In this document: positions 7,975 to 60,821 of the stretch, in pieces
Layout of the letters: every line of letters starts with the position of its first letter
How positions within the stretch are numbered: position 1 is the first letter of the stretch
Origin: Kiritimatiellia bacterium
GTDB lineage: Bacteria; Verrucomicrobiota; Kiritimatiellia; JAKQHR01
DNA: 64,000 nt
Reading direction: 5' to 3'
Assembly (NCBI GenBank): GCA_050178035.1
Contig: JBFXGK010000001.1
Span: forward strand, 128,679-192,678
Notes under the pieces: model-generated
Told to the model about the DNA's origin: nothing
The model's input: the letters and a program-made list of their open reading frames with translations, nothing else
Databases searched by the model: none
Position numbers and translations under genes: made by a program

Positions 7975-9290
7975 GCACATCTGTCCCAGTATTACCGCCA
8001 CAGCATCAACTGGTTAGAAGAGGGAGGTGTTTCTGGGGAGGCGTCTGCCTGCTGAAAAGCCTGTAAAATGGGCACTTTTTCAAATAGCGAGACACTCAAG
8101 ACCTGTAGAATAATGTAGAGTGAAGCTTCTATTTTCAGCCGCTTCTTTATGATGGCGACCAGCAGATATACTGTGATCGCAATCCAGATTTGAGATTTAA
8201 CCGCATTGGGCGAGGTTCCGTAGAATGACTTGATCCGCAGATTCTGCTTGATCCATTTAAAAAATATTTCGATGTTCCAGCGGCCCTTGAAAAGTTCTGC
8301 AACCGTGAGGGGAGGAAGTGAAAAATTATTGGTAAGGAAAACCAGCGTCCGGTTTTCCTGATCACGATACTTGATGCGCCGGAGATGTTCCGGAAAGTAT
8401 CGGGCTGTCTGTGTACCCGTGAGAATGATGGTCTGATCGCAAAGGATGCCGCAGTCTCTATCGGATGGATGGGAGTAGATACGTTGGAACTGAAGATTGG
8501 ATCGGGCCCGTGTAACAAAATAGGCTTTAAGCGAGTGTAGCAGATAAAGGCGTTTGAAATCCAAATAGGCGCGGTCCATTACATAGTAGGCTCCGGGAAC
8601 CGGCAGGATGTGATCCAATACACTGGCATCACCTCGTTTGCCATCTGTAATCAGTATATATTCCGGGATATTGCCGGATAAGTTGAGAAGGGTATGCATC
8701 TTCACGGCCCCTTTGGTCCGGCAGAAATGAGCCCAAGGAAACATCGAAAGACACAGGTCGATCACCGTTGAGTCCAATGCGTATACATCGGCACCCAAAT
8801 CCGGCATCAGCGGATCATCCGCGTATAATCGTCTGGCCTCAGGAATCAGGACGTGAGCAAAATCAGCGTAGATGCGCCAGTCCCGGGTTTCGTTCGCAAC
8901 AGAAAGATTGTTGCGCGAGACGCGACTGTGAATCCCCAAGTGGTACAGCTTGCCGCTCACAGCCCGCAAACAGGATTCGATGTCCCGCAAACTTTCACGG
9001 CAAGTCAACTGAGCAAAGGCCATCACACGGAACTGCTCAGAGCACCGGAACGTCTTCACCTTGTAATCGCCCTGATAGCGATTCACCAACGTCTGAAATC
9101 GCCACCAGGGCAACTGCTGCATCAGCTGAGAAAATACGGTTGTTCCAGAATACATAAGGTTGATCTCCTCCTCCTGATCAACCTTATAGGAAAAACCAAT
9201 TTCAAGTCGGAAAGGATGTAATATCAACACATCCTTATGATGTAACGTGCGTTATAACTATTTTATGCGAAAACGTTGGGACAGATGTGC
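7975..9290 (-). mobile_element. IS element, IS4-family-like, ~1.3 kb, with terminal inverted repeats and flanking direct repeat
   Basis: Perfect 14-bp inverted repeats gcacatctgtccca (7975-7988) and tgggacagatgtgc (9277-9290); flanking direct repeat cattttt at 7968-7974 and 9291-9297 (7-9 bp depending on exact IR end); one DDE transposase ORF inside. Confidence 0.8.
7992..9155 (-). CDS. DDE transposase (IS4 family-like)
   Basis: ORF 7992..9230; start set to ATG at 9155 (MYSGTTVFSQLMQQLP...). Candidate DDE residues in YALDSTVIDL, YVMDRAYLDF, WNIEIFFKWIKQNLRIK. Confidence 0.85.
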   Translation of the reverse strand: MYSGTTVFSQLMQQLPWWRFQTLVNRYQGDYKVKTFRCSEQFRVMAFAQLTCRESLRDIESCLRAVSGKLYHLGIHSRVSRNNLSVANETRDWRIYADFAHVLIPEARRLYADDPLMPDLGADVYALDSTVIDLCLSMFPWAHFCRTKGAVKMHTLLNLSGNIPEYILITDGKRGDASVLDHILPVPGAYYVMDRAYLDFKRLYLLHSLKAYFVTRARSNLQFQRIYSHPSDRDCGILCDQTIILTGTQTARYFPEHLRRIKYRDQENRTLVFLTNNFSLPPLTVAELFKGRWNIEIFFKWIKQNLRIKSFYGTSPNAVKSQIWIAITVYLLVAIIKKRLKIEASLYIILQVLSVSLFEKVPILQAFQQADASPETPPSSNQLMLWR

Positions 9291-20250: not shown

Positions 20251-21900
20251 TCACTTCCCGGCCATCATGGCCGCGACATCGGCCTGCACTTCGCCAGTCG
20301 GTTTGATGTCGAAGTTCTCAACCAGCACTTTGGCGACAGCGGGCGAAAGGAACGCCGGAAGCGTCGGCCCCAGGCGGATGCCTTTCACCCCCAGATGCAG
20401 CAGCGCCAGCAGCACCGCAACGGCCTTCTGCTCGTACCAGGCGATGTCGAACGAAAGCGGAAGGTCATTGATGGAGGCCAGACCGAACGCCTCCTTCAGC
20501 TTCAGGGCGATGACCGCCAGCGAGTAGCTGTCGTTGCACTGCCCAGCATCCAGCACGCGCGGAATGCCGCCGATGTCGCCGAGGTTCAGCTTGTTGTAAC
20601 GGTACTTCGCGCAGCCCGCGGTCAGGATGATCGTGTCCTTTGGCAGAGCCTCGGCTACTTCTGTGAAGTAGCTGCGGTTTTTGTGACGACCATCGCATCC
20701 GGCCATCACCACAAAGCGCTTGATCGCACCGGACTTGACAGCCTCCACCACCTTGCCGGCCACGGCCATGACCTGATTGTGTGCGAAACCACCGACGATT
20801 TCGCCGTTTTCAATCTCCTGCGGCGGCGGACACTTCTTCGCCTGCTCGATGATCGCGGAGAAATCCTTCTGCTTGCCCGGTTTGCGGTCGGGGATGTGCT
20901 TTGCGCCCGGCCAGCCGGCCATGCCCGTGGTGTAAAAACGGTTGAGATAAGAATCCTTCACCGGAATGATGCAGTTGGTCGTCAGCAGGATCGGCCCGTT
21001 GAACGAGGCGAATTCCTTGTCCTGAAGCCACCAGCTCCCGCCGTAGTTGCCGGCCAGGTGCTTGTATTTCTTGAAGGCCGGATAGTAATGGCACGGAAGC
21101 ATTTCTCCGTGGGTATAGACATCCACCCCCGTGCCCTCTGTCTGCTGCAGCAGTTCGTCCATGTCCTTCAGGTCGTGGCCCGAAATCAGAATGCCCGGAT
21201 TTTTGCGGACGCCGGTGGCAACTTTTGTGATTTCCGGATTGCCATAGGTCTCGGTATTGGCTTTGTCGAGCAGCGCCATGGTCGTTACGGCAATTTCGCC
21301 CGCCTTCAGGACCATGCCCACCATTTGATCAACACTGAGTTTCTGAGTGGTCGAGATCAGACCATCAACCACAAACCGGTAGATGGCGTCATCCTCATAG
21401 CCGAGAACAAGCGCGTGATCAGCGTAGGCCGCGATGCCCTTCAGGCCAATGATCAGAAGCTGCTGGAGCGACCGCACGTCCTCGTTCGGCTCGGACGGGA
21501 TGCCGACCAGAAGCGCCTTGACCTGCAGATCCTCGCCCTTCTTCGGAGCCCATGTCGCCGCGTCGGGCAGACTTTTCGCCCAGGCGGCGTCCTTCTTCTC
21601 GCACTGCTTGCGAATGGCGTCGCGCTGCGCAACAGCCTCATGGATCAGGCGGCTGATGACTGCATCGTCAAAGTTGGCATTGGTGATTGTGGAAAAAAGA
21701 CCGCGGATAATGGTCTGTCCGACTGCGCGGTCATACAGGCCCAGTTCATCGGCTTTCTTGCCGGCAATGGCCAGTCCTTTCAGAGAATGGATCAGAAGAT
21801 CCATCAGATTTGCCGTGGGCTCCTGTTTTCCGCAAACGCCCCGGACGGTGCATCCCTGATTCTTCGCGGTCTCCTGACACTGGAAGCAGAACATACTCAT
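20251..21900 (-). CDS. hcp: hybrid cluster protein / hydroxylamine reductase
   Basis: 549 aa; N-terminal [11 protein letters not shown]...CTVRGVCGK Cys cluster and full-length Hcp architecture. Confidence 0.95.
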
Positions 21901-33788: not shown

Positions 33789-35105
33789 TTAAATAAAGTT
33801 CAATCTGCCCTGCTCCAATTCCAGCACCTCGCCCGCCAGATACAGCGAACCGGTGATGCAAACCATCCCGCCGTTTTCCGCGGCCCATTTTTTGGCCGAT
33901 GCCAGCGCCTCCGGAAGCGCAGCCGTTTCGCAGGGAATCTGATGCCTCCGTAAAACCGAAACAATATCCGCAACCGGGCGGGCGCGCTCGCCGTGAAGCT
34001 GGACAGCCCACGCATGTTCGGCCATACGGCTGAAGTGTTTCAAAAACCCGTCCGCATCCTTGTCAGCCAGAAAGCTGACCACCAGACGCAGCGGGCGCTT
34101 GCCCTTCAGGCTCTTCAATGTGCGCGCGAGGGCTTCCCCGCCGTCTGTATTGTGGGCGCCGTCGAGGATGACCGGCGGCTCGCGGCTGAGGATCTGGCAC
34201 CGCGCGGGCCAGAATGTTTTTTCCAGGCCCTTTTTGATCACCTCGGGAGGGATGTCCGTTCCAAGGCGGTCCGCAAGTGTTTCCAGGGCTGCGACGGCAA
34301 TTGCCGTATTCTCAAGCTGATGATCGCCAAGCAGCGGAAGCAGAACCGGCGGACAGCTCCCCTGCTGCGTTTCGATGCTGATCCGCTGGCCGTCCAGATC
34401 CTGATTCATGCGGCGCACCGACGCGTATTGGGCGGCATCCACGGCAGGAGCTCCCAGTTCCTTTGCGCGGCGCAGAATGACCGCAGAGGCCTCTTCCGGC
34501 ATTTTCCCGAAAACAACCGGTACGCCGGGTTTGATGATGCCGCTTTTTTCGCCGGCAATCTTTTCCAGCGTGCTGCCCAGATACTCCATGTGATCCATGC
34601 CGATGCGCGTGATGACAGAAACCAGCGGAGTGATCACATTCGTGGAATCCCACGTCCCGCCCATGCCGGTTTCAATGACCGATATTTCCGCATTCTGCCG
34701 CGCGAAATATTCAAAGGCGAGCGCCGTGGCTATTTCAAAAAAGGTGGCGGGCCTCAGTCCGTGCTTTTGAGAAACCGCATCGGCGGCCGCATCCGAATTT
34801 TCCAGAAGCGCGGCCAGTTCTTCATCCGCAATGGGCTGTCCGGCAATGCGGAAGCGTTCGTTGAAGCGGACCAGATGGGGCGAAGTGTAGAACGCGGTCC
34901 TGATGCCGGCGGCGCGCAGCACGGATTCGACCATGGCCGCCACCGAGCCCTTCCCGTTGGTTCCCGCGACATGGACGCAGGGGATTTTCCGGTGAGGATT
35001 TCCGAGTTCCGCAAGGATGGCTTCCGTGACCTCCAAGCCGGGCTTGATTCCAAAGGCTGTGCGCCGGAAAAGTTTTTCCAGCGCATCCGGAAGCGAAATG
35101 CTCAC
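33789..35105 (-). CDS. folC: bifunctional folylpolyglutamate synthase / dihydrofolate synthase
   Basis: 438 aa; VAGTNGKGS P-loop and Mur-ligase family architecture. Confidence 0.9.
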   Translation of the reverse strand: MSISLPDALEKLFRRTAFGIKPGLEVTEAILAELGNPHRKIPCVHVAGTNGKGSVAAMVESVLRAAGIRTAFYTSPHLVRFNERFRIAGQPIADEELAALLENSDAAADAVSQKHGLRPATFFEIATALAFEYFARQNAEISVIETGMGGTWDSTNVITPLVSVITRIGMDHMEYLGSTLEKIAGEKSGIIKPGVPVVFGKMPEEASAVILRRAKELGAPAVDAAQYASVRRMNQDLDGQRISIETQQGSCPPVLLPLLGDHQLENTAIAVAALETLADRLGTDIPPEVIKKGLEKTFWPARCQILSREPPVILDGAHNTDGGEALARTLKSLKGKRPLRLVVSFLADKDADGFLKHFSRMAEHAWAVQLHGERARPVADIVSVLRRHQIPCETAALPEALASAKKWAAENGGMVCITGSLYLAGEVLELEQGRLNFI

Positions 35106-35971
35106 GATGCCTTGGCCTCACCCGGACGCGACGGACGGAAAAAGTCCAGGAGCTGGATCAGTGTGGACTTGAGTTCCTTGCGGTTCACCACCATGTCCAG
35201 CAGGCCGTGCTTGAGCAGGAATTCCGATTTCTGGAAACCGTCCGGCAGATCCTGCTGTGTCGTTTCCTTGATGACGCGCGGGCCGGCAAAGCCGATCAGC
35301 GCATCGGGTTCGGCCACGATGACATCGCCCAGCGTGGCAAAGCTGGCCATGACGCCGGCCATGGTCGGATGCGTCAGCACAGGAATGTAGGGAAGCCCCG
35401 CGGCCGCGTGGCGCGCCAGCGCGCCGCTGGTCTTGGCCATTTGCATCAGGCTGAAGAGCCCCTCGTACATGCGCGCGCCGCCGGAGGTGCAGACGATCAC
35501 CACTGGAAGCCGCTCGGCAGTTCCGCGCTCGATCAGGCGGGTGATTTTTTCGCCTACGACAGAACCCATGCTGGCGCCGAGGAAATCAAAATCCATCACG
35601 GCAAACGCCACCGCATGCTCGCCCATGCGCCCCTTGCCGCAGAGCACTGCATCCTTGCGGCCGGTTTTCTTCATGTTGGATTCCAGCTTGGAGACATAAG
35701 AGGAAGTGCCGGTGAACTCCAGCAGGTCCATGGACTCCAGGCCGGCGTCCCATTCCTCAAAGGACTTGGGCTCGAGAAGCATTTCGAGGCGCTCGGTGCA
35801 GCTCAGCGGAAAATGGAATCCGCATTTCGCGCAGACCCCGTGCTCCCGGTGCATCTGCTTGCGGTACACCATTTCGCCGCACGAGGGGCACTTGGTCCAC
35901 AAGCCGTCCGGGATATCCCTCTTCTCCGACGTCAGCCTTGCTATTTTCTTCCTGAAAAACGGAAACATCAT
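35102..35971 (-). CDS. accD: acetyl-CoA carboxylase carboxyltransferase subunit beta
   Basis: 289 aa; N-terminal zinc ribbon CPSCGEMVY...CAKCGFHF and CT-beta domain. Confidence 0.95.
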   Translation of the reverse strand: MMFPFFRKKIARLTSEKRDIPDGLWTKCPSCGEMVYRKQMHREHGVCAKCGFHFPLSCTERLEMLLEPKSFEEWDAGLESMDLLEFTGTSSYVSKLESNMKKTGRKDAVLCGKGRMGEHAVAFAVMDFDFLGASMGSVVGEKITRLIERGTAERLPVVIVCTSGGARMYEGLFSLMQMAKTSGALARHAAAGLPYIPVLTHPTMAGVMASFATLGDVIVAEPDALIGFAGPRVIKETTQQDLPDGFQKSEFLLKHGLLDMVVNRKELKSTLIQLLDFFRPSRPGEAKAS

Positions 35972-44855: not shown

Positions 44856-46631
44856 TTGCGGCAGGATATGAAACCGACAAAAACACTGATGCTGGGAAAT
44901 GAAGCGATTGCGCGCGGCGCCTGGGAAGCCGGCGTGCGCGTGGCCACGGCCTATCCCGGCACTCCCAGCACCGAAGTCACCGAACACATCGCGCAGTACA
45001 AGGAAATAGATTCCGAGTGGTCGGTGAATGAAAAAGTCGCACTGGAAGTAGCGATTGGCGCTTCCGTGGCCGGCGCGCGCGCAGTCTGCACGATGAAGCA
45101 CGTTGGCCTCAATGTGGCCATGGATCCCCTGCTCTCGATTTCTTATCCCGGCGTCAATGCGGGGCTGGTGGTCGTGGTGGCGGACGACCCCGGACAGCAC
45201 AGTTCCCAGAACGAGCAGGACACCCGCTATTTCGGCATGGCCGGAAAGCTGCCGGTGCTCGAACCGTCCGACAGCCGCGAGTGCCGCGATTTCATGATCC
45301 GCGCGTTTGAAATCAGCGAGAAATTTGACACCCCTGTGATCGTTCGCACAACCACGCGCGTGGCCCACGCCTATGGTCTCGTGGATCATGGCGAGCGCGC
45401 TGACGTTCCGCTGCGCGAGTACGACAGCCGATTCGGGAAATACATGGTCGCGCCCGCATTCTCGCGCAAGCGCCGCGTGGTGGCCGAGGAGCGTCTTGGG
45501 AAACTGCGCGGGTTCGCGGAAACCACCGACTTGAATGTTTATGAGGAAGGCCGGTCTGATACCTGCATCGTCACCGGGAGCATTGCTTATCAGTACTGCA
45601 AGGAAGTCATGCCCGAGGCCGGTTTCTGCAAACTGGGGCTTTCGTATCCCCTGCCCGAAAAGAAGCTGAAAGATTTCTGCAGACGGTACCAGCAGGTTTT
45701 CGTTGTTGAGGAACTGGAACCCATTTTCGAAAACCACCTGAAGACGCTCGGAATCCCAGTGATTGGAAAAGATAAAGTTCCAATCATTGGAGAATTGAGC
45801 ACGGAGATCGTCCGAAAGGCGCTGACCGGGATTGCTCCGAAGCCGGCAGCATCCCAATTTGAAAACCTTCCTGTTCGTCCTCCGGTGCTCTGCCCCGGAT
45901 GCCATCACCGCGGACCGTTCTATGTGATGAAGAAACTCAAGCTGAAAGTGGCCGGCGACATCGGATGCTACACGCTGACCGCCTCGCCGCCGCTGAGCAT
46001 CATGGACACCGCGATCTGCATGGGCGCGGGCATCGGCATGGCCTTCGGCATGCAGAAGGCGCGCGGAAAGGATTTCGCGGGAAAATCTATCGCGGTCATC
46101 GGCGACTCGACCTTCTGGCATTCCGGCATGACCGGCCTCCTGGACATTGTCTATAACCGCGGCATCACCACGGTTGTCATTTTGGACAACAGCATCACCG
46201 CGATGACCGGGCATCAGGAGAATCCATCCAGCGGCAGGACTCTCAGCGGAGAAACCGTGCCTGCGATCAGCTTTGCGGATTTTGCAAAATCCATCGGCAT
46301 CAGGCATGTGCGCGAAGTGGATGCCTTCAACCTGAAGGAACTCGAAACAGTCATGCGCGAGGAACTGGCGCGCGAGGAGCCGTCGGTGATCATCACCAAA
46401 CGCATCTGCATCCTGCACCCGTGTGCGGTCAGGCATTTCCCGCTGAAGGTGAATCCGGATCTCTGCAAGAGCTGCATGAAATGCCTTTCGATCGGATGCC
46501 CCGCCATTTCCTTCGACGGCGACAAGGTGAAGATTGATCAGGTGCTTTGCGTGGGATGCGAACTGTGCGCGGGCATATGCCCGTTCCATGCGATTGAAAA
46601 GCAGCCCAAACCCGACGGAGGCGAATCTTGA
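44856..46631 (+). CDS. iorA: indolepyruvate ferredoxin oxidoreductase subunit alpha
   Basis: 591 aa; TPP-binding and 4Fe-4S ferredoxin motifs (CKSCMKC...CPAISF, CVGCELCAGICP). Confidence 0.95.
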   Translation: MRQDMKPTKTLMLGNEAIARGAWEAGVRVATAYPGTPSTEVTEHIAQYKEIDSEWSVNEKVALEVAIGASVAGARAVCTMKHVGLNVAMDPLLSISYPGVNAGLVVVVADDPGQHSSQNEQDTRYFGMAGKLPVLEPSDSRECRDFMIRAFEISEKFDTPVIVRTTTRVAHAYGLVDHGERADVPLREYDSRFGKYMVAPAFSRKRRVVAEERLGKLRGFAETTDLNVYEEGRSDTCIVTGSIAYQYCKEVMPEAGFCKLGLSYPLPEKKLKDFCRRYQQVFVVEELEPIFENHLKTLGIPVIGKDKVPIIGELSTEIVRKALTGIAPKPAASQFENLPVRPPVLCPGCHHRGPFYVMKKLKLKVAGDIGCYTLTASPPLSIMDTAICMGAGIGMAFGMQKARGKDFAGKSIAVIGDSTFWHSGMTGLLDIVYNRGITTVVILDNSITAMTGHQENPSSGRTLSGETVPAISFADFAKSIGIRHVREVDAFNLKELETVMREELAREEPSVIITKRICILHPCAVRHFPLKVNPDLCKSCMKCLSIGCPAISFDGDKVKIDQVLCVGCELCAGICPFHAIEKQPKPDGGES

Positions 46632-47227
46632 AGTCCGCGACCAACATCCTGATTGCCGCCGTAGGCGGACAGGGCGCGCTGCTGGCTTCGAAGATTCTGG
46701 GAGCCTGCGCGACCGCGCGCGGCGACGATGTGAAGATGTCGGAAATCCACGGCATGGCCCAGCGCGGCGGAAGCGTGGTGACCCATGTGCGGTTCGGGCA
46801 GAAGGTTTTTTCGCCGACCATCGAACAGGGAACTGCGGATGTGCTGCTGGCCTTTGAGATGCTGGAAGCGGCACGTTACGCAACGATGTTGAAAGCCGGC
46901 GGGACCGTGATTTTGAACACGCAGGCCATCGCGCCGCTCCCGGTGCTCACCAACGAAATGCCCTACCCCGCCGATATCATCGGCCGTTTGCAGAAAATGG
47001 ATCTCCGGGTGTGGCACGTGGATGCCCTCGACCTTGCGCGAAAGGCCGGCCATGTCAAAACCGTGAACACCGTCCTCATCGGCATGTATGCGCGGATGGA
47101 CGGCGGATCCGCCGAACCATGGCTGAAGGTGCTTTCAGAAAATCTGCCCGAACGGCTTTTTAAAGTGAACCAGGCCGCCTTCATGGCCGGTTATGAAATC
47201 AGTCCTCCGTGGACAAAGCAGGAGTAA
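46628..47227 (+). CDS. iorB: indolepyruvate oxidoreductase subunit beta
   Basis: 199 aa; IAAVGGQGALLASKIL motif; TTG start overlapping iorA stop. Confidence 0.9.
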   Translation: MKSATNILIAAVGGQGALLASKILGACATARGDDVKMSEIHGMAQRGGSVVTHVRFGQKVFSPTIEQGTADVLLAFEMLEAARYATMLKAGGTVILNTQAIAPLPVLTNEMPYPADIIGRLQKMDLRVWHVDALDLARKAGHVKTVNTVLIGMYARMDGGSAEPWLKVLSENLPERLFKVNQAAFMAGYEISPPWTKQE

Positions 47228-47230
47228 TCC

Positions 47231-48532
47231 GTGATCTGGAATAGAATCTTTGAATGCATGTCCCGCAATGAATTAACCGCATGGCAGACCAAGCGCCTGA
47301 AGGAGACTGTAGAGCGGGTCTATGAAAAAGTTCCCTTCTACCGTCGCAAGATGGATGAGCTGGGCATCAAGCCGAAGGATATTAAAAGCCTTGAGGATAT
47401 CCGGCATCTGCCCATGACCACCAAGCAGGATCTGCGCGACAACTATCCCTTTGGGATGTTCTCCTCGCCCATGTCCGAAATCATCCGCCTGCACGCCTCG
47501 TCGGGCACAACCGGTAAACCCACCGTAGTCGGCTATGCGCGGGAGGACATTGATCTGTGGGCCGACGTCATGGCGCGCACGCTCTGCAGCGCGGGCGCGA
47601 CGGAACACGATATCATCCAGATTGCCTACGGCTACGGCCTTTTCACCGGTGGGCTTGGCGTGCACTACGGGGCGGAAAAGCTCGGTGCAACGGCCATCCC
47701 GGTTTCGGGCGGCAACACCCAGCGGCAGATTCAGATTCTGCAGGATTTCGGGCCCACGCTGCTTGCCTGCACCCCGTCCTATTCCCTTTTCCTCGCGGAA
47801 GCGCTCGCGGAGCGCAATATTCATCCGGGCGATCTCAAGCTCAAGGCCGCCGTGCTGGGCGCGGAGCCGTGGACCGAGAACATGCGCACCGCCATTGAAA
47901 AGAATCTTGGCGTCAAGGCCATTGATATTTACGGCCTCAGCGAAATCATCGGCCCCGGAGTGGCCTATGAATGCATGGAGCAGAATGGCCTGCACATCAA
48001 CGAGGATCATTTCTATCCCGAGATCATAGATCCTTCCACGCTGAAGGTTCTTGAGCCGGGGCAGCACGGCGAACTGGTCTTCACCACGATCACGAAGCAG
48101 GGAATGCCGCTCCTGCGCTACCGCACGCGCGACCTGACCAGCCTGATTACGGAAACCTGCCCTTGCGGGCGCACCACCGTCCGCATGCACAAGTGCCAGG
48201 GCCGCAGCGACGACATGCTCATCATCCGCGGCGTGAACGTATTCCCGTCGCAGATCGAAAGTGTTCTGCTGGAAATGGACGGAACGCGCCCGCACTACCT
48301 GCTCATCATTGACCGCGTGAACAATCTCGATCAGCTCACGCTCCAGGTTGAGGTGGACGCGCAGTTCTTCTCGGACGAGATCAAGCAGCTCGAGGCGCTG
48401 AGCAGGCGCATCAAGCACAATGTGGAAAGCACGCTGGGCCTGTCGGTGAACGTAAGACTGGTGGAGCCGCAGACCATCGAACGAAGCGAGGGCAAGGCCA
48501 AACGCGTGATAGACAACCGCAAACTTTCATAA
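47231..48532 (+). CDS. paaK: phenylacetate--CoA ligase family protein
   Basis: 433 aa; [14 protein letters not shown]-binding motif and PaaK-type N-terminal domain. Confidence 0.9.
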
Positions 48533-48544
48533 GGAGGATTCGCC

Positions 48545-48970
48545 ATGATCATTCAGCAGGTTTCAATATTTCTTGAAAACAAATCCGGGCGGCTGGTGGA
48601 AGTCACCGGGGCTTTGGCTGAAGCCGGCGTCAACATCTCCGCGCTGAGTATTGCGGAGACGTCTGACTATGGCGTGCTTCGCTGCGTCGTATCGCATCCC
48701 CAGAAGGCCATGGATCTTCTCAAGGCCAAACACTTCTCGGCCCGCCTGACGGATGTCATCTGCATGGCGACGCCCAACCAGCCGGGAGCACTGCACCGCT
48801 GCCTGAAAATACTCGCTGATGCCAATATCAGTGTGGAATACATGTATGCCTTCGCCATCGGCGACCGCGCGCTGGTCGTCATCCGCACCGACAACATCAA
48901 GGAAACCATCAGTGTCCTTCAGCACCACAAAGTGGACCTGCTGAAATCGAGCGAACTGTATCAGGTGTGA
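48545..48970 (+). CDS. ACT domain-containing protein
   Basis: 141 aa; two ACT-like segments; commonly follows paaK-like ligases in anaerobes. Confidence 0.8.
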   Translation: MIIQQVSIFLENKSGRLVEVTGALAEAGVNISALSIAETSDYGVLRCVVSHPQKAMDLLKAKHFSARLTDVICMATPNQPGALHRCLKILADANISVEYMYAFAIGDRALVVIRTDNIKETISVLQHHKVDLLKSSELYQV

Positions 48971-50069: not shown

Positions 50070-51638
50070 TTATGCCGTGCGAATGCCTTCCGAGTCCGTG
50101 TGGATCAAGCCGTTTATCAAGTGCCCTTTGCCCGCCAGACCCAGGATGAAGCAGACGGCGGCGGCGAGCAGATAGCCGTGGCCGACACTTGATGTGAGTG
50201 CGATTTGCATTTTGGGGGAATGGATCACGCCCACGAAGCTCAGCAGCGCAGCCGCGAGGAAGAATCCGGCGGCCTTTTTGAGCTGGCGGTCAATCAGCGC
50301 AGCGGTTGCCGCGCCCCAAAGGAGTCCGACCACAATCGCGCCGCCGGCGACAGTGGTGTGCCCCGTCACATACGCGCCCTGCTGCAGCATGTTTTTCATC
50401 AGTTCAGGATCGGTCACGATCGCAGGCGCCGTTGTGTCGCCCATCGCGCGCAGGGCCTGCAGCAGGCTTCCCCACTGCTTCACGAGCAGATCGGAGACGT
50501 GCGGAATGAGCGCAATGCCCACGGCCATGGCATGGTGCTTCGGGCAGGCCGTGAAGGCCTGGCCGGTGATCACCAGCGCAATATAGACCAGCATGGGCGC
50601 GACCGCGGCAATCGGGATGATCTTGTGCATGAAGCCCACAAAGCCCAGCACGGCGCCGAGGCAAAGCACAACGCCCACGGCGAGGGCATAGCCCGCGCGC
50701 GCGTTCATGCGTTTGTAGCCGGGGTGGCCGATATAAACGGTCGTCGGAAAGGCCGAACCGCAGAGCGCGCCAACCATAGTTCCCACTCCGTCCATGATCT
50801 GGCATTTTCGGACATCATACTTGTCGCCGGCGGCCTCGGCGGATTCAACGTTGTTCATGGTCTCGAGGAAGTTGTAGATCTCCACTGGAATAATGATGGC
50901 CAGCAGTTCCGGATGCGAGAAGAGCGCTTTCATGCCGACGATGATATCCTTGATCACGGGAACCGGAAAATGAAAACCAAGCTGTTCAAATTCCACTTTC
51001 GTGTGGCCCATGCAAAGGGAAATTACAGACCCGACAATTACGGCCAAAAGTCCCGCGGGAATGCCAAACGGCAGGCGGAGACCGGCCACCAGCCCGATAA
51101 GGATGATGATCATGGCTGGAAAGCCGATCAGGGGCGCTTCGAAGATTTCCGCAAAGGGAACGACCGCGATCCATGCGATGGCAATGCCCGCAAGGGTGCC
51201 CAGCATGCCCGCGCGCGGCGTGACGCGCTTGATCACCGGCCCGATCACGCTTCCCAGCGCCTCGATCACTCCGCCAAGAAGGGCGGCCGCTATGCCAACC
51301 TGCCAGGCGAGAACCGGATCCTGCGTGGCAAAATAAATCGGGCCGATCACGCCGAAAAGATAAACGAACATGACGGGCGTGCTGATGCCATAGGGAAGCG
51401 CCGTCACATTATCGCGTCCCTCTTTCTTGGCGAGCTGGACGGCAAGATAAGCGTAGAATGCGAGGCCGACGATCAATCCAACGCCAACGCCGGGCAGGAT
51501 GCGGCCAAAGACGATGGAGTCCGGCATTTTGAAGACAAACTTGCAGACACCGCTCAGAATGATCATGTTCGCGAGGTTGTCCGCAAACAACGCCCAAAAT
51601 GCGTTCCATTCGCCCTTTGAGAATATTCTTCCGCCCAT
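50070..51638 (-). CDS. NCS2-type (xanthine/uracil/vitamin C or AzgA-like) permease
   Basis: 522 aa; 13-14 TM helices; weak similarity by eye to purine permeases; family assignment tentative. Confidence 0.55.
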   Translation of the reverse strand: MGGRIFSKGEWNAFWALFADNLANMIILSGVCKFVFKMPDSIVFGRILPGVGVGLIVGLAFYAYLAVQLAKKEGRDNVTALPYGISTPVMFVYLFGVIGPIYFATQDPVLAWQVGIAAALLGGVIEALGSVIGPVIKRVTPRAGMLGTLAGIAIAWIAVVPFAEIFEAPLIGFPAMIIILIGLVAGLRLPFGIPAGLLAVIVGSVISLCMGHTKVEFEQLGFHFPVPVIKDIIVGMKALFSHPELLAIIIPVEIYNFLETMNNVESAEAAGDKYDVRKCQIMDGVGTMVGALCGSAFPTTVYIGHPGYKRMNARAGYALAVGVVLCLGAVLGFVGFMHKIIPIAAVAPMLVYIALVITGQAFTACPKHHAMAVGIALIPHVSDLLVKQWGSLLQALRAMGDTTAPAIVTDPELMKNMLQQGAYVTGHTTVAGGAIVVGLLWGAATAALIDRQLKKAAGFFLAAALLSFVGVIHSPKMQIALTSSVGHGYLLAAAVCFILGLAGKGHLINGLIHTDSEGIRTA

Positions 51639-51792: not shown

Positions 51793-53208
51793 TTATTTTG
51801 CTTTCAAATGTTTGGCAAGGCCCTCGTAGGCCTTTTTGAACGGGTCCATCGGTGCGTTCAGCACGCCCGCGCCCACCTGCCCCACGCCGGGCTCCTTGTG
51901 AGCCACGCCGGTGTCAATGAACGGCAGAATGTTCTTTTCAACCACCTTCACAACATCAATGCCCGTCGGTGTACCGCGGAAGTTCAGGGATGGAATCTGA
52001 TACATGTTGTTTTCCGCCGCCGTGATTTCGTACATCGTCATCGTGTACTGCAGCGCATCCGCCGCGGTTCCGCCCACGAACTGCACAATGGCCGGCGAGG
52101 CTGCGATCGCGAAGCCGCCGAGCCCGCCCGTTTCCGTGATGGCGCTGTCGCCAATGTCGCGCGCAGCGTCGGCCTTGCTGAAGCCGGGGAAATACAGCGC
52201 ATCCGGAACCAGCGCTTCGCCGACATACCACTTCCCTCCGGTGGCGGAAATCTGCACGCCGAAGTCCGTGCCGTTGCGGGCCATGACCGTCGCGACGCTG
52301 CTGTTTTTGATCCCGCGCGCGGCATCCAGCACGCATTTGCTGGCGGGCATGGACAGGTTCAGGAAGAAATGGTCGTTGCTGTGGATGAACTCCAGGACGG
52401 CCGCCGCATCGGTGCGGTTCCCGGTGGTCTTGATGATGGCCGGGGCCAGCAGGCGATAGAGAAGCGAAGTTCCCGCGCGGTTGCGGTTGTGCACTTCGTC
52501 GCCCATGTGCAGGGCCTGCGCGATCAGGTTCTTGAGATCAATGAAGCCAAGCTGTTCAACCGCACGCTGCAGGACCGGATAGAGCACCTTTTCCATCCAG
52601 CGCAGGCGATCAATCACCTCCGGGCTGTAGGCTCCGTAGCGGAGCACCTTGCCGAGTCCCTCGTTCAGCGTGCAGTAGGCCTTGTTGCCAAAGGTCTTGT
52701 TTTCGATGATCCACACCGGCATCGAAGGCGTGACCACGCCCGCCATCGGGCCGACCGCGCAGTGCTCGTGGCAAGGCGCAAATTTCAATTTCCCTGACTT
52801 GGCTAACTTCTCCGCCTCTGCCGGGGTTTTCGCCATGCCCTCATAAAGCAGTCCGCCCATCATTGCGCCGCGCATCGGGCCGCACATGCGGTCCCAGGTG
52901 ATCGGCGGGCCGGAATGCAGGAACAGATTCTTTTTCATTCCGGGGATCACGTCAATCGCGCGCGCAAGGCCCACCACGCGCGGCATGCCGCGCAGGATGA
53001 TGTCCATCGCCTTCTTGTTGGCCTTTTCGATCTGGGCCTTTTTGCCAGCAATGATTCGAACCGCCTCCGGCGAAACATCCACCGGCGGCTTCCACTGCAC
53101 CTGAATGGCGGGCGTCCCGACTTCGTCCAGCGCGGCCTTGAAGGATTCGAGTCCAATATTGACCACTTTAACTTGACTGTTGAAAAGTTCTTTCACGGCC
53201 ATGATCAT
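51793..53208 (-). CDS. DUF1116 domain protein (YlbE-like)
   Basis: 471 aa; near-collinear to E. coli YlbE as I recall it (HSGPP, CHEHCAVGPM, NEGLGKVLRYGAY, FFLNLSMPASK, GIAHKEPGVGQVGAG). Confidence 0.85.
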   Translation of the reverse strand: MIMAVKELFNSQVKVVNIGLESFKAALDEVGTPAIQVQWKPPVDVSPEAVRIIAGKKAQIEKANKKAMDIILRGMPRVVGLARAIDVIPGMKKNLFLHSGPPITWDRMCGPMRGAMMGGLLYEGMAKTPAEAEKLAKSGKLKFAPCHEHCAVGPMAGVVTPSMPVWIIENKTFGNKAYCTLNEGLGKVLRYGAYSPEVIDRLRWMEKVLYPVLQRAVEQLGFIDLKNLIAQALHMGDEVHNRNRAGTSLLYRLLAPAIIKTTGNRTDAAAVLEFIHSNDHFFLNLSMPASKCVLDAARGIKNSSVATVMARNGTDFGVQISATGGKWYVGEALVPDALYFPGFSKADAARDIGDSAITETGGLGGFAIAASPAIVQFVGGTAADALQYTMTMYEITAAENNMYQIPSLNFRGTPTGIDVVKVVEKNILPFIDTGVAHKEPGVGQVGAGVLNAPMDPFKKAYEGLAKHLKAK

Positions 53209-54757: not shown

Positions 54758-56921
<2,164 letters not shown>

Positions 56922-57081
56922 TTACCTCTTTTTATCCTGCGCAATTCACATGAACTGCTCTTGTGGGCGCAGAAAATGAATGAAATGTCATTTCGAATCA
57001 AGCATCTTTCTTCAAATTCTTGCTATCAGCCGGGAAATCTGGAAATAATGATCCGTTCAAACAAATGAAAGTGTTTCAATC

Positions 57082-58701
57082 ATGAACAGCAAAGTATCGC
57101 ACGCGGCAAACGCTTATGCGGCAGGCGGCCGGAAAACCGTTGATCCGTCCAATATTGTCCCTTTTCTCGAGGCCGTGCTGAAGCCCGGCATCCGCGTGTG
57201 CCTCGAGGGCGACAACCAGAAACAGGCTGATTTTCTGGCCCAGGCTCTCACGCAGGTGAATCCGGAAAAGGTCAACCGCCTGCACATGGTGCAATCGTCG
57301 CTGGTGCTGCCGGAGCACCTTGATGTTTTTGAGAAAGGCATCGCCGAGAAACTTGATTTTGCGTACTCCGGCCCGCAGGCCAAGCGCCTTTACAAGATGG
57401 TGGGTGAAGGCAAGGTCAAGATCGGCTCGATTCACACCTACCTTGAACTGTATTCCCGGTATTTCTCCGATCTGAATCCGCAGGTCTCTCTGATTGTGGC
57501 GGACTACGCTGATCCCTCGGGGAATCTTTACACGGGATACAACACGGAAGACACCCCGCTCATCTGCGAGGCCACCGCATTCAACCGCGGCATTGTCATC
57601 GCGCAGGTGAAGGAGGTTCGAGACGCCCTGCCCCGTGTGGACATCCCGGGCGACTGGGTGGATTTTGTCGTGCCCACCGGAAAGAATTACTATATTCAGC
57701 CGCTGTTCACAAAGGATCCGGCAAAGATTTCCGAGATGCAGATTCTGCTGGCCATGATGGTTATCAAGGGGATCTACGAGAAATACAAAATCAATTCGCT
57801 GAATCACGGGGTCGGCTACAATGCAGCAGCCATCGAACTGCTGCTCCCAAAACTCGCCGGCCACCTGAAGGGCAAAATCTGCCAGTACTGGGCGCTGAAC
57901 CCCCATCCCACGCTGATCCCCGCCATCGAAAGCGGCTTTGTAAAGCGCATCTATTCCTTTGGAGGCGAGCCGGGCATGGAGGAATACTGCAAAGCCCATC
58001 CGGACATCTTCTCCATCGGTCCCGACGGATCCATGCGGAGCGGACGGTTGAACGCCCAGCTTCTGGGTTTGTACGGGGTGGACTGCTTCGTGGGCTCCAC
58101 GCTCCAAATTGACCGGTTTGGCAACTCCTCAACCGCCATTGACGGCATGATCGCCGGCTTCGGCGGCGCACCCAACCTCGGCAGCACGCCTCCCGGACGC
58201 CGGCATTCCTCGCCGACCTGGGAAAAGAGCTCACGCGAAAACAAGACCTTTAAGAAGTATACCGGTTATAAATCCGGCCGCAAAATCGTGGTTCAGATGA
58301 CGCCGACCGTGAGCGAGAAAAAGGAAATACCCGTATTCGTGGAGGAACTGGACGCAGCGAAACTTTTCAGGAGCGGGAAGTTTGAAACCCCGCCGGTCAT
58401 GCTCTATGGGGACAGCATCACACACATTGTCACCGAATGCGGCATCGCCAACCTGATGAAATGCGCCTCGCCCAGAGAGCGCATGAAGGCCGTGGCCTCC
58501 GTCGCCGGCAGCACCGATGTGGGCAAAGCATCCACCGCCGAAGACAAGGCCGCGCTGCGGAAGAAGGGCATTCTGCAGACACCTGAAGATTTGGGCATTG
58601 ACCCGGCAGCGGCCAAAAAGGATTTGCTGGCCGCGCACAGTTTGGAGGACCTCGTGAAATGGTCCAAGGGGCTCTATCACATTCCGGAGGGACTGAAATG
58701 A
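57082..58701 (+). CDS. malonate decarboxylase alpha-subunit homologue (MdcA-like acyl/CoA transferase)
   Basis: 539 aa; strong collinearity by memory with MdcA (LEGDNQKQADFL, LDFAYSGPQ, IGSIHTYLELY, GNLYTGYNTEDTP, LNPHPTLIPAIESG, GSTLQIDRFGNSS); no other mdc subunit genes in the window. Confidence 0.75.
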   Translation: MNSKVSHAANAYAAGGRKTVDPSNIVPFLEAVLKPGIRVCLEGDNQKQADFLAQALTQVNPEKVNRLHMVQSSLVLPEHLDVFEKGIAEKLDFAYSGPQAKRLYKMVGEGKVKIGSIHTYLELYSRYFSDLNPQVSLIVADYADPSGNLYTGYNTEDTPLICEATAFNRGIVIAQVKEVRDALPRVDIPGDWVDFVVPTGKNYYIQPLFTKDPAKISEMQILLAMMVIKGIYEKYKINSLNHGVGYNAAAIELLLPKLAGHLKGKICQYWALNPHPTLIPAIESGFVKRIYSFGGEPGMEEYCKAHPDIFSIGPDGSMRSGRLNAQLLGLYGVDCFVGSTLQIDRFGNSSTAIDGMIAGFGGAPNLGSTPPGRRHSSPTWEKSSRENKTFKKYTGYKSGRKIVVQMTPTVSEKKEIPVFVEELDAAKLFRSGKFETPPVMLYGDSITHIVTECGIANLMKCASPRERMKAVASVAGSTDVGKASTAEDKAALRKKGILQTPEDLGIDPAAAKKDLLAAHSLEDLVKWSKGLYHIPEGLK

Positions 58702-59519
58702 AAAAGTGTGTCGTATCCTGCGTGCAAATGTTCATCCGTCCTCTGGACGTGCTCGGCAACACCGAACGCGCCCTCCATTTTCTGGAAAAGGCCAAAAAGG
58801 ACTGCAAATCCGACCTGGTTGTCTTTCAGGAATCCGTGACGACCGGTTTTACGCCCAACATGCCCGCGAAGGAGTTTCTGAAGGTCATTGACAAGGTTCC
58901 CGGCAAGCAGATTGCACCGATCCTGGATGCAGCCAAGAAACTGAAACTGCACATTGTGTGGCCGGATTACGAGAAAGTCGGCCAGAAAATATTCAACTCC
59001 GCATTCCTGATCGGCTCGAACGGAAAGATCATTGGCAAGTACTGCAAAACGCATCCGTTCGACAAAGAGAGCACCGAACGCGGCGGATGGACCACACCCG
59101 GCACCGAGATGCGAGTTTTCCAGACGCCGTTTGCGAAAATCGGCATGATCATTTGTTTTGACGGCGACTATTCCGAGGCTTCGCGCCTGCTGGCCAAAAA
59201 GGGCGCTGAAATCATCGCCCGCCCGTCGGCCCTGCTGCGGAACTATGAAATCTGGTCGCTCACCAACCGCGCACGCGCGTTCGACAATCACGTCTTTCTG
59301 GCGGCCGCGAATGCGACCGGGTTTGACGCCGCGGGCAGGCACTATTACGGGCACAGCATGATCGTCGGCCCCGCAGGAAACATCATGGCGCTGGCGGCCG
59401 CGCAGGAGGACATAATCAGCGCAGAGCTCGACCCGAAAATGATCCGCCAGACGTTCCCGGGCTCCCCCGCGCAGCGGGTATACGACCATCTCGCCGACCT
59501 GAATCCGCGTTTGAAGTAA
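58698..59519 (+). CDS. carbon-nitrogen hydrolase (nitrilase-superfamily amidase)
   Basis: ORF 58659..59519; start set to ATG at 58698 (MKKCVVSCVQM), overlapping the MdcA-like stop (ATGA); catalytic E-K-C triad context (VVFQESVTT, CKTHPF, MIICFDGDY). Confidence 0.8.
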   Translation: MKKCVVSCVQMFIRPLDVLGNTERALHFLEKAKKDCKSDLVVFQESVTTGFTPNMPAKEFLKVIDKVPGKQIAPILDAAKKLKLHIVWPDYEKVGQKIFNSAFLIGSNGKIIGKYCKTHPFDKESTERGGWTTPGTEMRVFQTPFAKIGMIICFDGDYSEASRLLAKKGAEIIARPSALLRNYEIWSLTNRARAFDNHVFLAAANATGFDAAGRHYYGHSMIVGPAGNIMALAAAQEDIISAELDPKMIRQTFPGSPAQRVYDHLADLNPRLK

Positions 59520-59528
59520 GCGGTTTTC

Positions 59529-60821
59529 ATGAGAATCCGGACAAAAATGATCATCGGAATCGGACTGCCGGTTCTGCTGATGTGGGCCCTCACGGCATGG
59601 GCCCTTCGGGGCATATCCTCAGCCGCGATCATTTTGGAAGTCACCATCATAGCGACCCTGGCCTCCATCGCGGCCGGAGCCATGCTGGTTCGTTCTGTTC
59701 TCTATCCGATCCGCAAACTCCGGGACAGCGCAGAACGGCTCGCAAACGGCGACATGTCTTTCAGGATCAACGATTCCGGATCGGACGAAGTGGCTGATCT
59801 TTGCCAAACTTTTAATGATATGGTTGCCAGGCTTGCGCACTGCCGCGAGGAAACAGAGACCAAGCTTCAGGCCCAGACCGAAAAGATATCCTCCAATCTC
59901 AAGGTCTATGCCGAACAGCGCCAGGAACTGGAGGACAACCGCATTGCAATGGAGAAGGTGATGGACAGTTTGCGCCTTAAGCAGGCTGAACTGCTTGAGG
60001 AAGTGAACCAGAGAAAACTCGCCGAGGCCCGTCTGAAAAACCGCGTGGAAGAGGTTGAGATCCTCAACAGGGGCATGACGAACCTGCTGGAGGATCTGCA
60101 GGAGGCCAGCCGGCTGCAGACCCGAACCACTGCGCAACTGAAGGAGGCCAACAAGGAGCTGGAATCATTCTCTTATTCCGTGTCTCACGACTTGCGCGCG
60201 CCGCTGCGCGCCATCAAAGGTTTTGCGGATGCCCTTTTGGAAGAAGCCGGGGATCAAGTCGGGGAGGCCGGACGCCACTATATTGACGTGATCACCCGGA
60301 ATGCGCGAAGCATGGGACAGCTCATCGAAGATCTGCTCGCATTCTCCCGCCTGGGCCGGAAACCGCTGGAACGGGTCACGGTTGACATTGATCGAATGGT
60401 CAGGGAGGCGGTTGCGGATTGCAAGCCAGATCCGGCGATGCGCAGTGTCGAGTTTCAAATCGAGTCCCTGCCGCCGGCGCAGGCTGATGCTGCTTTGATG
60501 CGCCAGGTCTGGATTAATCTCATATCCAATGCCGTGAAATTCACCGGGCGGAAGAAGAAGGCCGAGATCAGGATCTGGTCATTCGAAGAAAACGGTCAGA
60601 TTGTTTATGCCATCCGGGACAACGGCGTGGGCTTCAACATGGATTACATCGACAAAATATTCGGGGTCTTTCAGCGCCTGCACCGGCCGGAGGATTTCGA
60701 GGGCACCGGTGTCGGCCTGGCCATTGTCCAGCGCATCATCGAACGTCATGGCGGAACTATCCGTGCCGAGGGTAAGGAAAACGAAGGTGCCGCGTTTTTC
60801 TTCACAGTTCCGGCATCCTGA
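59529..60821 (+). CDS. sensor histidine kinase (TM-HAMP-coiled coil-HisKA-HATPase)
   Basis: 430 aa; H-box FSYSVSHDLRAPLRAIKGF, N/G boxes (NLISNAVKFT, DNGVGF, GTGVGLAIV). Confidence 0.85.
   Translation: MRIRTKMIIGIGLPVLLMWALTAWALRGISSAAIILEVTIIATLASIAAGAMLVRSVLYPIRKLRDSAERLANGDMSFRINDSGSDEVADLCQTFNDMVARLAHCREETETKLQAQTEKISSNLKVYAEQRQELEDNRIAMEKVMDSLRLKQAELLEEVNQRKLAEARLKNRVEEVEILNRGMTNLLEDLQEASRLQTRTTAQLKEANKELESFSYSVSHDLRAPLRAIKGFADALLEEAGDQVGEAGRHYIDVITRNARSMGQLIEDLLAFSRLGRKPLERVTVDIDRMVREAVADCKPDPAMRSVEFQIESLPPAQADAALMRQVWINLISNAVKFTGRKKKAEIRIWSFEENGQIVYAIRDNGVGFNMDYIDKIFGVFQRLHRPEDFEGTGVGLAIVQRIIERHGGTIRAEGKENEGAAFFFTVPAS

Follow-up and report, generated by a model that had tools for sequence, protein, structure and literature searches.

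MdcA and MadA are acetyl-S-acyl carrier protein (ACP):malonate ACP-transferases of the malonate decarboxylase (Mdc/Mad) complex, represented by the solved structures PDB 5vit and 6mpr, and a side activity with coenzyme A (CoA) esters has been reported for MdcA of Acinetobacter and Pseudomonas. Malonate CoA-transferase activity (EC 2.8.3.3) occurs in anaerobes that decarboxylate malonate via malonyl-CoA, e.g. Sporomusa malonica; to our knowledge, no gene has been assigned to it. The omega-amidases Nit2 and Nit3 hydrolyse monoamides of dicarboxylates, and the aerobic oxidative pyrimidine pathway of Rhodococcus and Nocardia proceeds through uracil/thymine dehydrogenase, barbiturase and ureidomalonase. 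Here we compare with these systems a pair of genes, one encoding an MdcA-like transferase and the other a carbon–nitrogen hydrolase (CNH) of the nitrilase superfamily, found in a 64-kb stretch of a Kiritimatiellia bacterium contig (the window; JBFXGK010000001.1, positions 128,679 to 192,678). The pair and its coupling signal are located as follows:

57082..58701, plus strand: MdcA-like class II transferase gene, ATG start, 539 aa; matches PF16957, TIGR01110 and MdcA structures
58698..59519, plus strand: nitrilase-superfamily CN hydrolase (CNH) gene, 273 aa; matches PF00795
58686..58701, plus strand: translational coupling signal, a GGAGGG Shine-Dalgarno motif plus ATGA stop/start overlap, read from the sequence

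The stop codon TGA of the MdcA-like gene (58699-58701) overlaps the start codon ATG of the CNH gene (58698-58700), and the resulting ATGA at 58698-58701, already pointed out in a preliminary description of this stretch, can be read directly from the sequence. The GGAGGG motif lies within the 3′ end of the MdcA-like gene at 58686-58691, 6 nt before the CNH ATG. The start at 58698 is preferred over an in-frame upstream ATG at 58659, given the N-termini of nine orthologues and the 273-aa gene call in relatives. We assign a probability of roughly 0.55 to the reading that the two products form a predicted amide-to-thioester exit module, in which CNH would act first and the MdcA-like protein would follow as an ACP-independent CoA-transferase, the amide being supplied by a YahEFG-type trio of proteins encoded next to the pair.

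The MdcA-like protein belongs to the same Pfam family as MdcA along its full length. It matches PF16957 (Mal_decarbox_Al) with 790 bits (E 1.4e-237; residues 10-536 against positions 15-541 of the 546-position profile), can be aligned from end to end with MdcAs of known structure (6mpr and 5vit, E about 1e-169) and is 52-59% identical to bona fide MdcAs of Acinetobacter and Pseudomonas in full-length alignments. The preliminary description had likewise seen a 539-aa protein matching MdcA from end to end; a truncated or pseudogenised copy, which it had allowed for, is not what is found. Nor is it a citrate lyase alpha subunit (CitF), the other assignment considered there, as all profile matches point to the MdcA family, no CitF match was obtained in Pfam or NCBIfam and beyond MdcA only a 20-bit FadX fragment was detected. 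The TIGR01110 (mdcA) score of 757.7 bits nevertheless falls under the equivalog cut-off of 789.15.

The residues of Pseudomonas aeruginosa MdcA that bind malonate, form the oxyanion holes or contact MdcC are known from the holoenzyme structure (PMC5534430). The window protein has kept every residue of the malonate pocket and oxyanion holes (N59, Y134, N258, N292, F312, R341, Q345 and G381, in P. aeruginosa numbering); neither MdcA nor the window protein has a catalytic acidic residue, so that the class II anhydride mechanism applies. The surface that contacts MdcC is different. In operon-linked MdcAs, position 424 is Phe or Tyr, position 466 Glu and position 490 aromatic (40/40 in each case), and position 428 is Met in 90%, whereas in the window protein these positions are occupied by V (424), C (466), S (490) and E (428). 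In P. aeruginosa, the F424A substitution alone is sufficient to dissociate the malonate decarboxylase holoenzyme (PMC5534430). All four positions are variable among 42 stand-alone MdcA homologues, yet of the 243 positions with at least 90% conservation in operon-linked MdcAs, 200 are also conserved in the stand-alone group. It should be added that a strict-identity scan for group-specific positions gives only 428 and 466, and that 424 and 490, the aromatic ones, appear once F, Y and H are pooled. As shown by this residue comparison, the catalytic core for malonate has been kept and the carrier-protein docking surface lost, which is the pattern expected of an enzyme using a free CoA thioester.

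Within the 64 kb, the gene does not form part of a malonate decarboxylase operon. Searching the window by tblastn with about 200 MdcB/C/D/E/G/H, MadB, MadH and MadL/M queries revealed no mdc or mad gene besides the mdcA-like one, in agreement with the initial observation that mdcB/C/D/E/G/H are missing nearby. An MdcD-like match at 35102-35971 (~25% identity) turned out to be the housekeeping accD, located beside a folC-like gene. To place the protein among its relatives, we collected 80 genomic loci with the closest MdcA homologues and clustered their neighbours, within a comparison that took in about 180 related loci overall and used conservation-weighted and GC3-weighted gene calling (GC3, G+C content of third codon positions). 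About half of the 80 are canonical operons, either madLM-mdcA-C-D-E-G-B-H (Acinetobacter, Psychrobacter) or Mad-type with MadB/MadH (anaerobes); the remainder lack mdcC/D/E. Trees were built by neighbour joining from small samples, and in the MdcA tree the window protein is found inside a monophyletic clade of 19 stand-alone loci from the Planctomycetota–Verrucomicrobiota–Chlamydiota (PVC) group, none of which (19/19) has mdcC/D/E within about 10 kb. A phylogeny of MdcA versus stand-alone homologues, proposed in the preliminary description as a check, thus separates the window protein from the decarboxylase subunits.

Two further stand-alone groups, from Dialister and Syntrophales, branch inside the Mad clade and arose independently. 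Loci of the Dialister group (L024-L026, L032, L033, L069) comprise madL-madM-mdcA and a LytS/LytTR two-component system, with no mdcCDE, and those of the Syntrophales group (L016, L023, L029, L034, L036, L079, L019, L021) comprise genes for a PEBP protein, an SSS symporter and mdcA; MdcA has a family III CoA-transferase as its neighbour in L019 and L021. Loci of both groups look like malonate-uptake and CoA-transfer modules. In four Verrucomicrobiota/Kiritimatiellae loci (L007, L008, L009, L012), a gene for a 900-aa aconitase precedes the stand-alone MdcA in place of CNH, and in L009 and L012 a MarR/ArsR-type regulator gene also does so.

The second member of the pair, CNH, matches PF00795 (CN_hydrolase) with 168 bits (E 3.6e-49), and its Glu45-Lys117-Cys153 triad is invariant in nine orthologues. 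The closest solved relatives are the omega-amidases Nit3 of yeast (PDB 1f89, E 6e-32) and Nit2 of mouse (PDB 2w1v, E 4e-27), which share the catalytic triad, although the similarity is distant and the genomic context entirely different; the best NCBIfam equivalog score is 115 bits against a cut-off of 500. CNH is a predicted malonamate (dicarboxylate monoamide) amidohydrolase. Adjacency of MdcA and CNH is conserved in at least eight lineages and in three gene orders (MdcA-CNH, CNH-MdcA and divergent), including Verrucomicrobiota (L002, L004, L006, L017), L057/L140, L166 and Omnitrophota/Elusimicrobia (L092-L095). CNH orthologues 46-49% identical to that of the window abut MdcA in the order CNH-MdcA in L002, L006 and L017, in the order MdcA-CNH in L004 and divergently in L057. 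The closest MdcA relatives, which come from Omnitrophota and Elusimicrobia and are 72-73% identical, lie in the series aldo-keto reductase, MdcA, CNH, SucC, SucD, FabF. Co-occurrence of the pair, which had been recommended for examination, therefore extends over Verrucomicrobiota, Omnitrophota and Elusimicrobia. In one elusimicrobial contig (L095, 11972-19951), an 8-kb island encoding an MmeI-type restriction-modification enzyme, a DUF3800 protein and an SNF2/PLD helicase-nuclease sits exactly between the MdcA and CNH genes, which are adjacent in the sister contigs L092-L094.

The likely source of the amide is encoded on the other side of the pair, in an operon transcribed divergently from it:

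56919..57081, no strand: divergent intergenic region between gdhA and the MdcA-like gene, 163 bp
55572..56918, minus strand: NADP-specific glutamate dehydrogenase GdhA, first gene of the divergent operon; NF006929, 747 bits against a cut-off of 536
54758..55567, minus strand: DUF2877/AllH(YahE)-like subunit, 269 aa; PF11392 (AllH), 75 bits
53205..54743, minus strand: FdrA/AllF(YahF)-like subunit, 512 aa; NF004760 (FdrA), 520 bits against a cut-off of 433
51793..53208, minus strand: DUF1116/AllG(YahG)-like subunit, 471 aa; PF06545 (AllG), 328 bits

The AllH-, AllF- and AllG-like genes are consecutive and abut or overlap, the start of the AllG-like gene overlapping the stop of the AllF-like gene by 4 nt. 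For the DUF2877 gene, the probable start is GTG at 55567 (the longest open reading frame reaches 55591, and gene calls in relatives give 270 aa), and for the FdrA-like gene ATG at 54743 (longest frame to 54797). The preliminary description correctly named gdhA as the divergent neighbour of the pair but took it to be the only one; in fact, gdhA heads the DUF2877/FdrA/DUF1116 operon. Relatives 91-93% identical (L086-L088, L098) share the gdhA-AllH-AllF-AllG / MdcA-CNH layout.

In Escherichia coli, AllFGH performs phosphorolysis of oxalurate, yielding carbamoyl phosphate together with oxamate, and AllK is the associated carbamate kinase (PMC11326118). The same three families (FdrA, DUF1116, DUF2877) make up AllFGH, the paralogous YahEFG of the YahEFG-YahI-YahJ set, itself uncharacterised, and the window trio. 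By analogy, the trio is predicted to catalyse phosphorolysis of an N-acylurea to carbamoyl phosphate and an amide, with ATP obtainable via carbamate kinase. The FdrA-like protein shares 41-43% identity with AllF and YahF of E. coli and 58% with the homologue in L082, and the AllG-like protein is 43-44% identical to AllG and YahG and 52-71% to the AllGs of the pathway clusters described below. The trio has the order H-F-G and sizes of 269/512/471 aa, compared with 287/515/472 aa for Yah and 271/555/419 aa for All, the order of which is F-G-H. Moreover, tblastn detected no allB/C/E/D homologues in the window. Judging from order, sizes and neighbours, the trio is a YahEFG-type paralogue rather than an orthologue of AllFGH, and, unlike for AllFGH, its context points to malonurate.

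That CNH and the AllFGH-like proteins belong together is suggested by gene clusters in other genomes. A metagenome scan with the CNH alignment yielded 80 loci, and CNH orthologues were found mostly in clusters of the type [AllH]-[family III CoA-transferase]-AllF-CNH-AllG-Cyclase(PF04199)-[NmrA-like]-XDH(FAD, FeS, Mo)-CoxG, with PucR-AllH-AllF-AllG-Cyclase-CNH as an alternative order and Cyclase often present in two copies. Among the 21 CNH loci flanked by at least 4 kb on both sides, 20 contain AllF/G, Cyclase or XDH, 15 contain AllF/AllG and 15 a CoA-transferase (family III in 14 and MdcA in one). In the loci with pathway genes, MdcA is present in 21 and a family III CoA-transferase in 29, and no locus has both; this mutual exclusivity implies that two unrelated CoA-transferase families appear to fill one slot after CNH. 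In the CNH tree, furthermore, MdcA-linked CNHs are nested among AllFG-linked ones. The family III enzyme of the clusters scores 404 bits with SUGCT and 416 bits with the NCBIfam succinate-glutarate model, compared with 271 bits for YfdE and about 200 for Frc, and is by these scores a putative succinyl-CoA:dicarboxylate type. A 559-aa protein in L115 (10220-11899) has two PF04199 Cyclase domains, the paralogue types being fused or in tandem, and the same is seen in L132, L133 and L138; such double Cyclase domains in AllF-CNH-AllG clusters suggest two distinct hydrolytic steps. A separate subgroup of CNH homologues, 43-47% identical, resides in PucR-permease-XDH-CoxG-CNH clusters with caprolactamase/hydantoinase-like genes and no AllF/AllG (L145, L147, L150, L162, L165, L170, L172) and may represent a related heterocycle pathway with another ring-opening or cleavage strategy.

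Several of the clusters point specifically to malonate. Two Firmicutes loci (L028, L030) have the order PucR-AllH-AllF-AllG-Cyclase-M42-MadB-MadA-ACP... and encode a complete Na+-translocating malonate decarboxylase (MadB, MadA, ACP, carboxyltransferase, MadH, MdcG and MdcB), and in L103, L128 and L142, MmdA together with MmdC or MmdB, i.e. a Na+-pumping (methyl)malonyl-CoA decarboxylase, adjoins Cyclase-CNH or the family III transferase. In a metagenome-assembled genome (MAG) of Chlamydiota (L013), MdcA comes immediately after AllF-AllG. In contig_18 (L082), an AllH-AllF-AllG-Cyclase-XDH operon ends in an amidase-signature (AS) enzyme in the place of CNH. A likeness of this enzyme to malonamidase was predicted beforehand, and among solved structures malonamidase E2 is indeed its closest relative (E 6e-53); about 8 kb beyond the AS amidase there is a stand-alone MdcA, and AllF/AllG are within about 15 kb of MdcA (L082/L085). 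Malonamidase E2 of Bradyrhizobium japonicum (PDB 1ock) catalyses the reaction predicted for CNH, malonamate to malonate and NH3, but is an amidase-signature enzyme (Ser-cisSer-Lys), whereas CNH has the Glu-Lys-Cys triad of the nitrilase superfamily, so that the relationship would be one of non-orthologous displacement and not of homology. Pyrimidines, in turn, are suggested by the permeases of the clusters, which score 374-377 bits as uracil permease/RutG and 186-235 bits as xanthine permease. Carbamate kinase is encoded inside clusters L102 and L114, and XDH-family and Cyclase-family genes, absent from the window, are found in sister clusters. By contrast, tblastn of the roughly 180 loci with the oxalurate-making AllB/C/D/E returned two matches only, one AllB-like (29%) in L022 and one AllC-like in L059, a canonical Psychrobacter mdc-operon locus. 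An AtzD-type barbiturase is absent from all Pfam-annotated neighbour lists.

These observations are consistent with a wider proposal, which we hold tentatively and at somewhat less than even odds, namely, that the pair is the exit of an energy-conserving anaerobic oxidative pyrimidine pathway widespread in uncultured PVC bacteria, Elusimicrobia, Omnitrophota, Firmicutes and other anaerobes. An XDH-family molybdenum hydroxylase would convert uracil or thymine to (methyl)barbiturate, and one or two Cyclase-family (PF04199) amidohydrolases would open the ring to give malonurate; as the window has no gene for either, these enzymes would be encoded elsewhere in the genome or be absent. By analogy with AllFGH, the DUF2877/FdrA/DUF1116 complex would then cleave malonurate (ureidomalonate) phosphorolytically into carbamoyl phosphate and malonamate, and carbamate kinase, where the clusters are fuller, would derive ATP from carbamoyl phosphate. 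CNH, as a Glu-Lys-Cys enzyme of the omega-amidase type, would hydrolyse malonamate to malonate and NH3 (or act on methylmalonamate if thymine is the starting compound). The MdcA-like enzyme, with the same anhydride mechanism and pocket as MdcA, would serve as an acyl-CoA:malonate CoA-transferase producing malonyl-CoA, with acetyl-CoA or succinyl-CoA as possible CoA donors. This is the reaction of EC 2.8.3.3 (malonate + acyl-CoA -> malonyl-CoA + acid), here assigned from sequence alone. In other clusters, the family III CoA-transferase would be the alternative to MdcA for dicarboxylate activation. Malonyl-CoA could enter fatty-acid synthesis or undergo decarboxylation. Fuller clusters would add an optional last step, catalysed by a Na+-pumping (methyl)malonyl-CoA or malonate decarboxylase, and a uracil/RutG-type permease would also belong to them. 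GdhA could assimilate two ammonia equivalents. The window itself would encode the last three steps together with gdhA and a nucleobase-permease-like gene.

With the oxidative pyrimidine pathway, which passages of PMC4051656 and PMC3758960 mention, this scheme would share uracil, barbiturate, ureidomalonate and malonate as intermediates and, in sister clusters, a molybdenum hydroxylase as first enzyme. The two routes would differ in three respects: ring opening is proposed for a Cyclase-family (PF04199) enzyme and not an AtzD-type barbiturase, ureidomalonate would be cleaved phosphorolytically, in an ATP-yielding step, to carbamoyl phosphate and malonamate instead of being hydrolysed to urea and malonate, and amidase and CoA-transferase steps would be added. 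We found no description of the pair or of the cluster in the open-access full-text literature, although work in subscription journals is possible; a 2025 preprint on reductive uric acid degradation was considered and concerns a different cluster.

The preliminary description had already speculated that an amidase releases a dicarboxylate such as malonate, which is then activated by CoA transfer. This idea gains support from the intact malonate pocket, the loss of the MdcC-docking residues and the conserved adjacency to CNH. It is further favoured by the occurrence of CNH with a family III CoA-transferase elsewhere and of a malonamidase-E2-like amidase in the place of CNH, and by the malonate or (methyl)malonyl-CoA decarboxylases of sister clusters. 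What it lacked was the AllHFG/YahEFG-type operon, the most probable source of the amide.

A number of observations weigh against this interpretation. Every functional assignment made here is a prediction from homology and gene context, and in the AllFGH family the one member that has been characterised uses oxalurate as substrate and not malonurate (PMC11326118). The 64-kb window encodes no XDH, Cyclase, carbamate kinase or decarboxylase, so that the upstream and downstream steps are unaccounted for here. In many clusters, the NmrA-like oxidoreductase and the second Cyclase paralogue have no role in the proposed scheme. The malonamidase E2 match of the AS amidase in L082 is the best of many amidase-signature matches (183 versus 164 bits). 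CNH is missing within 10 kb of MdcA in many PVC loci, and in Omnitrophota and Elusimicrobia the MdcA-CNH pair is located amid housekeeping genes, with no AllFGH nearby. Finally, AllF-AllG pairs with an AllG about 72% identical to that of the window but no AllH, Cyclase, XDH or CNH are found in L178 (8323-12697) and L179 (8301-12551), a 6.5-Mb contig and Candidatus Vecturithrix, where they adjoin a gene for a TrkA-type K+ channel; the trio may accordingly have a broader or different role.

Some of these points fit another explanation, in which the pair serves salvage: the MdcA-like enzyme would scavenge malonate for fatty-acid synthesis or detoxification, CNH would be a general omega-amidase or a metabolite repair enzyme and divergence from gdhA-AllHFG would be coincidental. 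The omnitrophotan and elusimicrobial pairs beside SucCD and FabF, the stand-alone MdcAs of Dialister and Syntrophales, which adjoin only malonate or solute transporters, the Nit2/Nit3 omega-amidases as best solved relatives of CNH and the solitary AllF-AllG of L178 and L179 are all in line with it. We nonetheless regard it as unlikely, because CNH orthologues occupy AllF-CNH-AllG-Cyclase-XDH operons (20/21 well-flanked loci), MdcA-linked CNHs are nested among those of AllFG clusters, three further phyla have MdcA or Mad genes directly next to AllF/AllG, and MdcA and the family III transferase of the clusters are mutually exclusive. Moreover, the organism has accD, and its malonyl-CoA supply would thus not depend on malonate. 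That the protein is instead an ordinary MdcA, i.e. an acetyl-S-ACP:malonate ACP-transferase whose Mdc/Mad partners are encoded elsewhere in the genome, with CNH unrelated to it, would agree with the full-length identity of 52-59% to Acinetobacter and Pseudomonas MdcAs and with the presence of all catalytic residues. The score under the TIGR01110 equivalog cut-off and the replaced MdcC-docking residues, including 424, the single mutation of which disrupts the holoenzyme, argue against it, as do the lack of any other mdc/mad gene in 64 kb and in 19/19 PVC-clade loci, the separate PVC clade and the CNH partnership conserved across phyla and gene orders; we consider this very improbable.

The pathway could also be a different one, the oxalurate/oxamate branch of anaerobic allantoin (purine) degradation, with the trio as oxamate carbamoyltransferase, CNH as oxamate amidase and the MdcA-like enzyme producing oxalyl-CoA. 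Like malonamate, oxamate is a monoamide of a dicarboxylate. Sister clusters encode regulators of the PucR type and enzymes of the XDH family, the oxalate enzymes Frc and YfdE belong to the family III CoA-transferases, and the only characterised AllFGH makes oxamate and carbamoyl phosphate from oxalurate (PMC11326118). Against this stands the unchanged malonate pocket of the MdcA-like protein (R341, N292 and Q345, with F312 stacked over C2). The carboxyl-transfer chemistry of malonate and (methyl)malonyl-CoA decarboxylases cannot act on oxalyl thioesters, and it is such decarboxylases that sister clusters carry. Furthermore, the family III transferase fits the SUGCT type far better than Frc or YfdE, the permeases resemble uracil/RutG and not xanthine transporters, no AllB, AllC, AllD or AllE homologue was found in loci of the pathway clusters, the matches being confined to the 29% AllB-like one in L022 and the AllC-like one in the mdc-operon locus L059, and the trio is YahEFG-type in order and sizes and no closer to AllFGH than to YahEFG. 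Collectively, these data make an oxalurate route improbable and favour malonamate as the amide delivered to the exit module.

If the exit module and the pathway are real, many proteins, numbering in the thousands, that carry the annotation ‘malonate decarboxylase subunit alpha’ in MAGs of anaerobes would be ACP-independent malonate CoA-transferases, supplying a gene for the EC 2.8.3.3 activity long known from anaerobes, and a class II ACP-transferase would have reverted to a free-CoA enzyme by losing a defined docking surface. Strict anaerobes could then degrade pyrimidines oxidatively, with carbamoyl phosphate as a source of ATP and with decarboxylation of (methyl)malonyl-CoA possibly providing a sodium gradient, a route that would matter for the turnover of nucleic acids in sediments, sludge and guts. 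The scheme would also suggest substrates that can be tested, namely, N-acylureas different from oxalurate, for the DUF2877/FdrA/DUF1116 paralogues, among them yahEFG of the E. coli y-ome, and would give a first function to the YahEFG-type paralogue family and to a PF04199 subfamily.

Both promoters are presumably located in the 163 bp that separate gdhA from the MdcA-like gene, where there is one sigma-70-like match, at 57020-57049 (+). Over 49.8-61 kb, however, the promoter scan gave 5 matches versus 4.2 expected from shuffled sequence and the terminator scan 18 versus 13.0 (sd 3.3), so that neither showed enrichment and no conclusion was drawn from them. Two further genes flank the two transcription units:

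50070..51638, minus strand: polytopic membrane protein, probable divergent NCS2/AzgA-type nucleobase permease, 522 aa; 154 nt downstream of the AllG-like gene
59529..60821, plus strand: HAMP-HisKA-HATPase sensor histidine kinase (Pfam); 9 nt after CNH

The membrane protein has no match in Pfam, NCBIfam, PHROGs or PDB, while its homologues, 50-64% identical, number in the thousands and are named xanthine/uracil permease, AGZA or NCS2 in NCBI and JGI; it appears to be a permease family outside current profile libraries. As it is tied to the pathway by adjacency in this lineage alone and its contexts elsewhere are uninformative, it was not counted as pathway evidence. Three independent assemblies (L086, L087, L088) end about 420 nt past the AllG-like gene, where the window has the permease-like gene, possibly reflecting a strain-variable junction or a repeat. 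The histidine kinase, which together with gdhA at 55572-56918 (-) flanks the pair just as the preliminary description had it, may be co-transcribed with CNH. Its candidacy as a conserved regulator was rejected, since it is absent at this place in 92% identical relatives (L001, L086-L088).

Elsewhere in the window, an IS4-like transposase (DUF4372 + DDE_Tnp_1) is encoded at 7992-9230 (-); its GC3 of 0.57 is clearly lower than that of neighbouring genes (about 0.72), suggesting a probably recent insertion. Genes at 44856-48970 (+) encode an indolepyruvate/2-oxoacid:ferredoxin oxidoreductase pair (thiamine pyrophosphate + 4Fe-4S, POR gamma), a PaaK-type aryl-acetate CoA ligase and an ACT-pair protein, which is a typical module of anaerobic aromatic amino-acid fermentation. 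A hybrid-cluster (prismane) protein gene is located at 20251-21900 (-) and, together with the ferredoxin oxidoreductases, is consistent with a strictly anaerobic source organism.

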